A stretch of 64,000 nucleotides of DNA from Eledone cirrhosa (Eukaryota): NCBI GenBank assembly GCA_964016885.1, contig CAXHJY010001504.1, positions 248,001-312,000 on the forward strand, in the 5' to 3' direction. Numbering within the stretch: the first letter of the stretch is position 1; each line of letters begins with the position of its first letter. A program made the position numbers and the translations under genes. The notes under the pieces are model-generated. The model saw only the letters and a list, made by a program, of their open reading frames with translations, was not told where the DNA came from and did no database searches. Shown in pieces: positions 27,188 through 27,540 of the stretch.

Positions 27188-27540
27188 CACAATATATTAA
27201 TAAATGGAAACTATATTTATAAAGCCATAATTATTTTATTATATATATTTCAAGGGCAACCAGGTAAATTATGGTGCGCTTTCATCAGATAAAATACAGA
27301 TTTGTTTTATAAATATATATTGACATACCCGGAAAAAAGACAACCTCAACGGTTGAAATTCGCACCATAATTTCCCTTGGTTGCTCTTGAAATATATATA
27401 ATAAAATAATTATGGCTTTATAAATATAGTTTCCATTTATTAATATATTGTATATTTACTCCACCATTTGTTGAGTGTTTATATCAGTTATAAACATTTT
27501 TAAGCTTGTTGAATCCCAACAAATTAAATATAACCTCTGC
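27188..27540. mobile_element. Head-to-head pair of pLTR-like copies (minus copy with full ribozyme, plus copy with full tail)
   Basis: 27188-27360 is the reverse complement of the 47430-47606 element; 27361-27540 restarts inside stem II and continues through ACTC (27458)..GAGTG (27473). Confidence 0.75.
27232..27296 (-). ncRNA. Minimal type I hammerhead ribozyme
   Basis: Minus strand TATTTTAT-CTGATGA-AAG..CTT-GAAA-TATATA-TA-ATAAAATA; perfect 8-bp stem I. Confidence 0.8.

Follow-up and report, generated by a model that had tools for sequence, protein, structure and literature searches.

The island at positions 27190 to 27540 of the window (the whole 64,000-nt stretch of Eledone cirrhosa contig CAXHJY010001504.1 analysed here) is, judged by its sequence features, made of two head-to-head pLTR pieces of a Hydra-clade Penelope-like element lying in a (TA)n tract. 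The element has two fixed outer ends, both of them internal and associated with a twin hairpin, and its islands mostly couple a long, tailed arm with a short arm drawn from the same source. Probably, the island goes back to reverse transcription of one RNA that was primed by the two strands of a cut (TA)n tract, from starts ~6 to 10 nt before each hairpin. Tails at one end, paired internal start sites and priming from both strands have been published before (Craig 2021; Frangieh 2024); the twin hairpin, the distance rule, the long-short coupling and the common source of the arms appear to be new.

The element and its islands in the window

Hydra-clade elements carry RWK instead of GxKF/Y, DKT instead of DKG, a CxCx5C linker before a C-terminal GIY-YIG without CCHH, and CxxC and CxH near the end; the same work reports inverted truncated copies and a 30- to 40-bp tail, often at one end, and its supplement holds an octopus member of the clade (Craig 2021, PMC8557442). 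Our element resembles them in RWR, DKT, CxCx5C, C-terminal GIY-YIG, a hammerhead-like motif in the family A pLTR and (TA)n targets, as well as in its inverted 5'-truncated copy and a tail often at one end only, whereas the tails of the hairpin-bearing families measure ~60 to 140 nt here versus 30 to 40 in that description (PMC8557442).

Locus L081 reads pLTR, ORF, 3' UTR, pLTR, with a unit of 3.67 kb, and L231, L232, L233 and L237 hold open frames of 737 to 742 aa from ATG with a YRDD core; 338 homologues were found at E<=1e-20. RWR and SDKT motifs, of the RWK type and DKT form of the clade, are present in family A, B and D frames, and a CNCRNKSKC linker, VIY/YVG core, CDLC and CRH were read in L231 and L232 (by eye; family A only). 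Pfam GIY-YIG matched L081 at E 1.5e-4, just under the curated cut-off, and Pfam RVT_1 gave no match to the two L081 RT pieces. Copies are flanked by (TA)n, as in Hydra-clade insertions, and occur with pLTRs and as tandem and inverted 5'-truncated copies, as in EN+ Penelope-like elements.

Minimal hammerheads have been reported in pLTRs (PMC4209133). The family A pLTR contains a type I hammerhead-like motif, a candidate ribozyme: a strict descriptor matched L237, L081 and the 47417 copy (0/1000 shuffles), with a match in family A and none in families B, C, D and F2. Among the 150 of 604 Rfam matches listed for the window, and in two pLTRs, there was no hammerhead, only microsatellite-driven or chance matches. 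The Hydra-type assignment rests on all tested features except the ribozyme.

Several observations concern related families. The tandem arrays of family B (at least four units of 3.54 kb) are identical across the 220 nt compared, which suggests recent activity. The N-terminal part of the family F2 ORF (L265, L271, L273) contains long stretches rich in Asn, His and Thr, resembling the N-rich inserts of rotifer Penelope elements (PMC3846280). At L085, a 2.2-kb inverted duplication (269-2452 / 5048-7235, 99% alike) harbours nested repeats, those of family A among them, and lies on either side of a different PLE frame with RVT_1 and GIY-YIG matches and CxxCxxC ahead of the nuclease; this duplication may be read-through DNA brought into both arms. 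By eye, the family of the L085 PLE also includes the window island at 39980-40361.

The source genome (3.0 Gb, 1796 contigs) has abundant (TA)n. Of the window's 19 inverted matches, 13 combine (TA)n on one outer side with an extension of 34 to 127 nt on the opposite side, and the ACTC..GAGT stem was seen by eye in 9 of these 13 (Table 1). No TA was found past the extension at 18482 and 49374, the extension is 10 nt at 45235, the match at 61966 is short at both ends, 14395 is a microsatellite, and 52056 is a pair of a different repeat. The fold-back at 61966-62230 is symmetric and tail-less, with TA at both outer ends and a central TA tract. Other repeats include a frequent SINE-like repeat of ~190 nt (729-917, 3453-4255, 5919-6103, 19918-20169, 29473-29663, 51043-52490), with an inverted pair at 52056-52357, and a 429-nt inverted repeat pair (32580-33008 / 36554-36981, 92.5% alike, 3.5 kb apart). 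Finally, a 260-nt repeat at 26913-27172 and 56148-56407 (95% alike) runs up to the left-hand TA tract of the island; we take it to resemble the 3' end of a CR1/L2-type LINE.

Table 1. Features of the island, of other insertions in the window and of the family B arrays (window positions unless a contig is given)
Feature	Position	Strand	Remark
Short arm, 5'-truncated pLTR copy	27190-27363	-	ends 8 nt before ACTC stem position, then (TA)n; matches copy 47433-47604
Long arm, 5'-truncated pLTR copy including tail	27361-27540	+	ends AACCTCTGC, then (AT)n
Head-to-head junction	27361-27363	.	CGC compatible with both arms, 3-nt microhomology; by eye against other copies
Tail	27451-27540	+	90 nt, between short and long start sites
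Hairpin 1	27458-27476	+	ACTC-11-GAGT
Type I hammerhead-like motif	27232-27296	-	8-bp stem I, CTGATGA, stem II, GAAA, palindromic stem III; by eye
(TA)n target, left flank	27174-27189	.	
(TA)n target, right flank	27541-27553	.	
Family A copy	47361-47604	+	short arm 47417-47604 from start-site-like ACTATCCAG; inverted 14-nt long-end stub 47361-47374
Family A' long+short island	1305-1547	+	ACTC 1466
Family B long+short island	21357-21562	+	ACTC 21491
Family B long+short island	63563-63734	-	
Family B copy	2401-2460	+	short arm and inverted 8-nt long-end stub at 2401-2408
Family C long+short island	16494-16705	+	ACTC 16647; sister copy 42221-42390
Family D long+short island	6342-6540	-	
Family D long+short island	13020-13226	-	
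Long+short island	40452-40837	+	127-nt tail, ACTC 40710
Long+short island	44754-44957	+	90-nt tail, ACTC 44867
Family B arrays (L210-L217)	G000 C1 91476611-91487267 and 437200343-437210965		

The two outer ends and the twin hairpin

Positions are given relative to the A of ACTC (0), with L for long (tailed) arms and S for short arms. Searching with the whole island gave 2979 candidates, of which 40 were scored; the 30 loci obtained mostly share the two ends. Since this sample was biased by its query, the search was redone with a 30-mer from the body common to both arms, which had 1860 exact matches genome-wide (reversed control: 0). From 95 of the first 100 listed 30-mer matches, all on contig C1, 132 family A arms (duplicates included) were read: 76 stop at the short site and 51 reach the long site before ending, while 3 end elsewhere and 2 read through. 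This agrees with the original prediction of two sharp outer endpoint peaks per family. The short site covers -12 to +3, blurred by TA, and the long site lies at +87 in 47/51 arms. Among 30 islands with G(-8) in the short arm, A at -7 of the long arm faces T in the short arm in 11/12 cases, and G at -6 faces A in 4/4; because the short arm differs from the long arm at -7 and -6, the last copied short-arm base in family A is -8, some short arms stopping two or three bases earlier. Measured to the stem, the last clearly copied base lies at 8 nt (A short), 10 nt (A long), 9 nt (B short) and 7 nt (B long), and at 6 or 10 nt for the family D long end. The figure of 4 to 8 nt before ACTC proposed earlier includes microhomology with the TA tract, family A standing at 8 nt.

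All six plus-strand ACTC coordinates put forward from the window were correct, each being closed by GAGT 11 to 32 nt on, and the minus-strand site at 6403 is present. The expected tie between the short end and a stem-loop across families was also recovered: in 15/27 family representatives, an RCTC..GAGY motif begins no more than 16 nt from the short end (shuffled mean 0.6, maximum 4), so that the cross-family ACTC rule exceeds chance but is not universal, 12/27 families having no match. The two copies first taken as solo (47420-47606 and 2401-2460) proved each to have a tiny inverted long-end stub, and so do 13/30 apparently solo short arms (one doubtful). These tail stubs, in C1 loci L031-L140, lie beside 11/14 plus-strand and 2/16 minus-strand arms, perhaps by chance; L107 has a possible short-site stub. 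Stubs of the short site are AT-rich and easily missed, so their lower number compared with tail stubs is not usable for the order of events.

One of the two primers had been placed at the RNA 3' end, a point that read-through copies overturn: the long end is also internal, and the hairpin occurs a second time immediately beyond it. Past +87, family A copies continue with ATATATTTA-GCTC-10-GAGC-ACTT, followed ~45 nt later by ATG, a continuation that repeats the short-end context ATATTT-ACTC-12-GAGT-GCTT. Hairpin 2 (GCTC-10-GAGC) is absent from the island itself and lies ~10 nt beyond the long end in read-through copies, e.g., L081 and L237. This second hairpin of family A served as a prediction for families B, C and D. 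Family B, which is Hydra-type, has hairpin 2 past its long end: the pattern "long end, 4-14 nt, RCTC" gave 534 matches (some counted twice), nearly all of the 100 listed reading ATCTA-GCTC, and the 30 loci read show GCTC in all cases and the GAGC partner in nearly all, as GAGC-ACTT with one point change, then the ORF. Family C gave 2 genome-wide matches, both GCTC..GAGC and one of them from a related family. For family D, likewise Hydra-type, hairpin 2 takes the form GCAC..GTGC in 2/12 loci, the remaining loci being long ends in repeats. A blast of the tails of 25 families over a first set of loci gave no read-through copies.

The outer pair of the hairpins in this genome (n=21) is A-T in 12, G-C in 8, A-C in 1 and G-T in 0, and since the families are related, independent covariation events are fewer than the 21 hairpins. 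Minimum-energy folds pair the hairpins elsewhere (partly formed in A, unformed in B), so that the signal may be sequence as much as structure. Family F2 has no hairpin motif and a different ORF start; it continues past the long end and repeats only AATATCG after both ends. Because F2 couples long and short arms (8/8) without it, the coupling does not require this hairpin. At L081 1845-2003 (family A), the stretch following hairpin 1 is the reverse complement of that following hairpin 2, and could form a long-range helix enclosing the tail just before ATG.

Related elements elsewhere also carry the twin hairpin. Scanning metagenomes with a 110-sequence alignment gave 77 loci at 31 to 39% identity, of which the 48 with an ORF start and upstream DNA were used and 29 left out; several are close relatives. 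Among these 48 Hydra-like leaders, 25 have at least two RCTC..GAGY hairpins (shuffles: mean 1.0, maximum 6), 14 have one and 9 none, and two GAGYRCT motifs 54 to 82 nt apart occur at 26/48 loci versus 0.03 in shuffles. Second-copy ends were counted by hand from alignments after removal of contig ends, the TA-only matches of L321 and two duplicate rows: 12/18 stop 1 to 5 nt before a hairpin (5 before the first, 7 before the second), three stop elsewhere and three resemble between-family divergence. Moreover, the published Hydra-1_Ajap consensus opens with both hairpins before ATG, unannotated, and two further Hydra-block consensus sequences end with one hairpin (PMC8557442 supplement). The word "hairpin" is absent from this supplement, and the available text of the paper describes no such motif and gives no long/short pairing count.

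Pairing and common source of the arms

Close pairs of family A (n=29) are L/S in 26 cases, S/S in 3 and L/L in none, against 14.3, 8.8 and 5.8 expected if arms were independent (1/200000 permutations); duplicated events (two L085 pairs, L125, L134, L135) and the S/S pair of L041, with its 184-nt spacer, were left out. Of six wider family A pairs, four are L/S; in another, an S arm is partnered by an arm truncated at the locus edge, and in the last an L arm by a read-through copy. For families B, C, D and F2 (short, end at or before +5; long, end at or beyond +30), 41 of 43 pairs are L/S, 2 S/S and 0 L/L (0/200000 permutations), the L/S counts in unselected flanks being 24/24 (B), 8/10 (D), 8/8 (F2) and 1/1 (C). 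Altogether, 67/72 close pairs are long+short, 5/72 S/S and 0/72 L/L.

Paired arms agree at 241/257 sites (94%; 17 subfamily-diagnostic columns), versus 57% for shuffled partners (sd 5%, maximum 73%), and diverge by 3.2% within pairs versus 6.8% when shuffled. Such agreement points to one source locus or subfamily for both arms, unless conversion made them alike. Same-source alleles, together with the absence of long+long pairs, favour one RNA over two. Of the two options named earlier, "two RNAs or two passes", the former is not favoured over two passes on one RNA.

As to 5' reach, the short arm is the longer one in 18 and the long arm in 12 of 30 family A pairs, the figures being 16 and 4 among 24 pairs of family B; in three cases (L082-L084) the short arm exceeds the long one by >2 kb of ORF. 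Neither arm thus regularly contains the other, which argues against simple snap-back copying. Inner junctions had been expected to be broad and are instead peaked, 54/116 family A arms stopping at -190..-161; inner ends in B and D peak near -70..-56. The peaks fall at (T/G/C)CCAG, which in B and D follows a TATA-like box at ~30 nt, and are read, from this start-site-like context, as the probable RNA 5' end. Two other causes were considered and rejected: the hammerhead cut site (~-58 in family A), the peak being at -190..-161, and a splice acceptor (from CCAG), since by eye copies begin a few bases before AG. Microhomology, also expected at these junctions, was seen as a 2- to 6-nt overlap in 9/29 but not in most; the others show one 32-nt overlap, two flush joints and 17 with extra or unaligned bases.

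Two starts on one RNA and the alternatives

The proposed sequence of events is the following: (i) the protein would cut both (TA)n strands; (ii) on one RNA, the two tandem RCTC-loop-GAGY hairpins that the 5' leader of the Hydra-clade element carries would each dock one RT-endonuclease protomer; (iii) each RT would extend one 3' end of the target, with the short arm made from hairpin 1 and the tailed arm from hairpin 2, where the RT would also displace the first cDNA; (iv) most cDNAs would run off the RNA 5' end within the same pLTR; and (v) the two cDNA 3' ends would be joined head to head, partly via microhomology. Penelope-like RTs are not known to have RNase H. Priming by both target strands, as first suggested, fits the geometry, the coupling and published in vitro work (PMC11167929). 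For the clade as a whole, chances seem evenly balanced that a twin RNA hairpin (GCUC-loop-GAGCACU twice, 54 to 82 nt apart) docks two RTs on one RNA and so programs double target-primed insertion. Each hairpin and each target strand would then have its own start, and the tail of PLEs would be the spacing of the docking sites. Some evidence runs counter to the model: coupling is seen in F2 despite its lack of the motif, folding predictions give the hairpins little support, the stop-to-stem distance varies from 6 to 10 nt by family and site, S/S pairs occur (5/72 close pairs and one with a 184-nt spacer), and in the published bulk assays top and bottom strands did not differ in their start sites (Frangieh et al., PMC11167929). 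A dimer fold of residues 1-490, run without an alignment, scored 0.00, which counts neither for nor against the model.

Alternatively, in a form of the two-template mechanism first suggested, an asymmetric complex could use two RNAs of one source locus, of which one starts short and one long, both sites being internal; the overlap of the arms would then simply be copied twice. Sequence cannot tell one RNA from two transcripts of one locus, which would share alleles too, and gene conversion could raise arm agreement. A free draw of arms from the family pool is nevertheless excluded by the 94% versus 57% agreement, and an extra rule would be needed against long+long pairs (0/72), a rule that tandem sites on one RNA provide for free, so that we regard two RNAs as unlikely. 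Head-to-head repeats have also been explained by self-priming (PMC3846280), an idea taken up together with endonuclease resolution (PMC3846280, PMC8557442): the long-site cDNA would snap back at its 3' end and be copied into an inverted arm that is cut or joined at the short site. This would yield the long+short pairing and identical arms, and small palindromes do occur at some junctions (1306-1459, 21420, 42244), but the short arm would have to sit inside the long one, whereas it reaches further 5' in 18/30 A and 16/24 B pairs and is longer by >2 kb of ORF in L082-L084. The 13/30 "solo" short arms (one doubtful) partnered by a tail stub alone speak against the scheme as well. Later deletion at the hairpin centre could imitate some of these patterns, but we hold the scheme to be improbable.

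The near-invariant sequence of the motif (GCTC..GAGCACT) and its poor predicted RNA fold would suit a DNA, translation or packaging signal, with ends set by endonuclease cuts and not by the RT start, and cleavage by the D. virilis endonuclease depends on the presence of the tail in DNA, as recounted in PMC11167929. Yet the outer pair covaries (A-T, G-C; GCAC..GTGC in D), and RT has been shown to start at the tail ends in the single element so far examined (PMC11167929), leaving this reading little likelihood. An assembly or chimera artefact is barely conceivable: no read or contig piece was found spanning the island locus, but arms differ by ~3% on average around unique centres, the 30-mer has 1860 exact matches genome-wide, metagenome contigs follow the same end rule, and raw reads from two other samples end at the short site, then (TA)n, and contain strand-switch joints. 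Those joints (two samples, another study) are supported by 3 to 4 read starts and concern other copies, largely of a sister subfamily.

The model of two starts on one RNA has partial parallels. During L1 twin priming, both target strands prime on one RNA and leave an inverted head-to-head joint, the first primer acting at the RNA 3' end, the second at variable internal sites, and the pieces barely overlapping. An L1-type inversion was rejected for the present islands: both starts are internal and fixed, and the arms overlap in most pairs. In telomerase, RNA structure positions the template and fixes what is copied; here, the hairpin lies 3' of the start and is not a 5' template boundary, which limits the comparison to an analogy. 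PAc, a Poseidon element of Anolis (Frangieh 2024, PMC11167929), has two internal RT starts that bound the tail in vitro, AT-rich targets with both strands cleaved and extended, and a predicted dimer. It resembles our element in the two tail-bounding starts, the AT-rich targets and both-strand priming, and differs in belonging to another clade and in having its starts in an AC-rich stem-loop 111 to 118 nt inside the ORF (PMC11167929), whereas our element has both in its 5' leader, with a separate copy of one motif following each. For PAc, the available part of that paper does not treat the coupling per event or the number of templates, and the accessible text of bioRxiv 10.64898/2026.07.22.740005 mentions neither tail nor stem. 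We found no published description of the twin hairpin or of a pairing count, in a search that covered older Penelope work and Repbase notes only lightly, so that prior mention is possible.

The origin of inverted pLTRs and of the one-end tail was named an open question in PMC8557442 and left open in the available text of PMC11167929. Our study adds a short conserved cis-element, a measurable distance from it to each end and a strict pairing rule, which together make this question testable. For annotation, the twin motif shows where Hydra elements begin and end. Telomerase is a sister RT group of Penelope-like RTs (PMC8557442); as the latter are its closest retroelement relatives, an RNA structure positioning the start of reverse transcription would bear on the comparison between the two.
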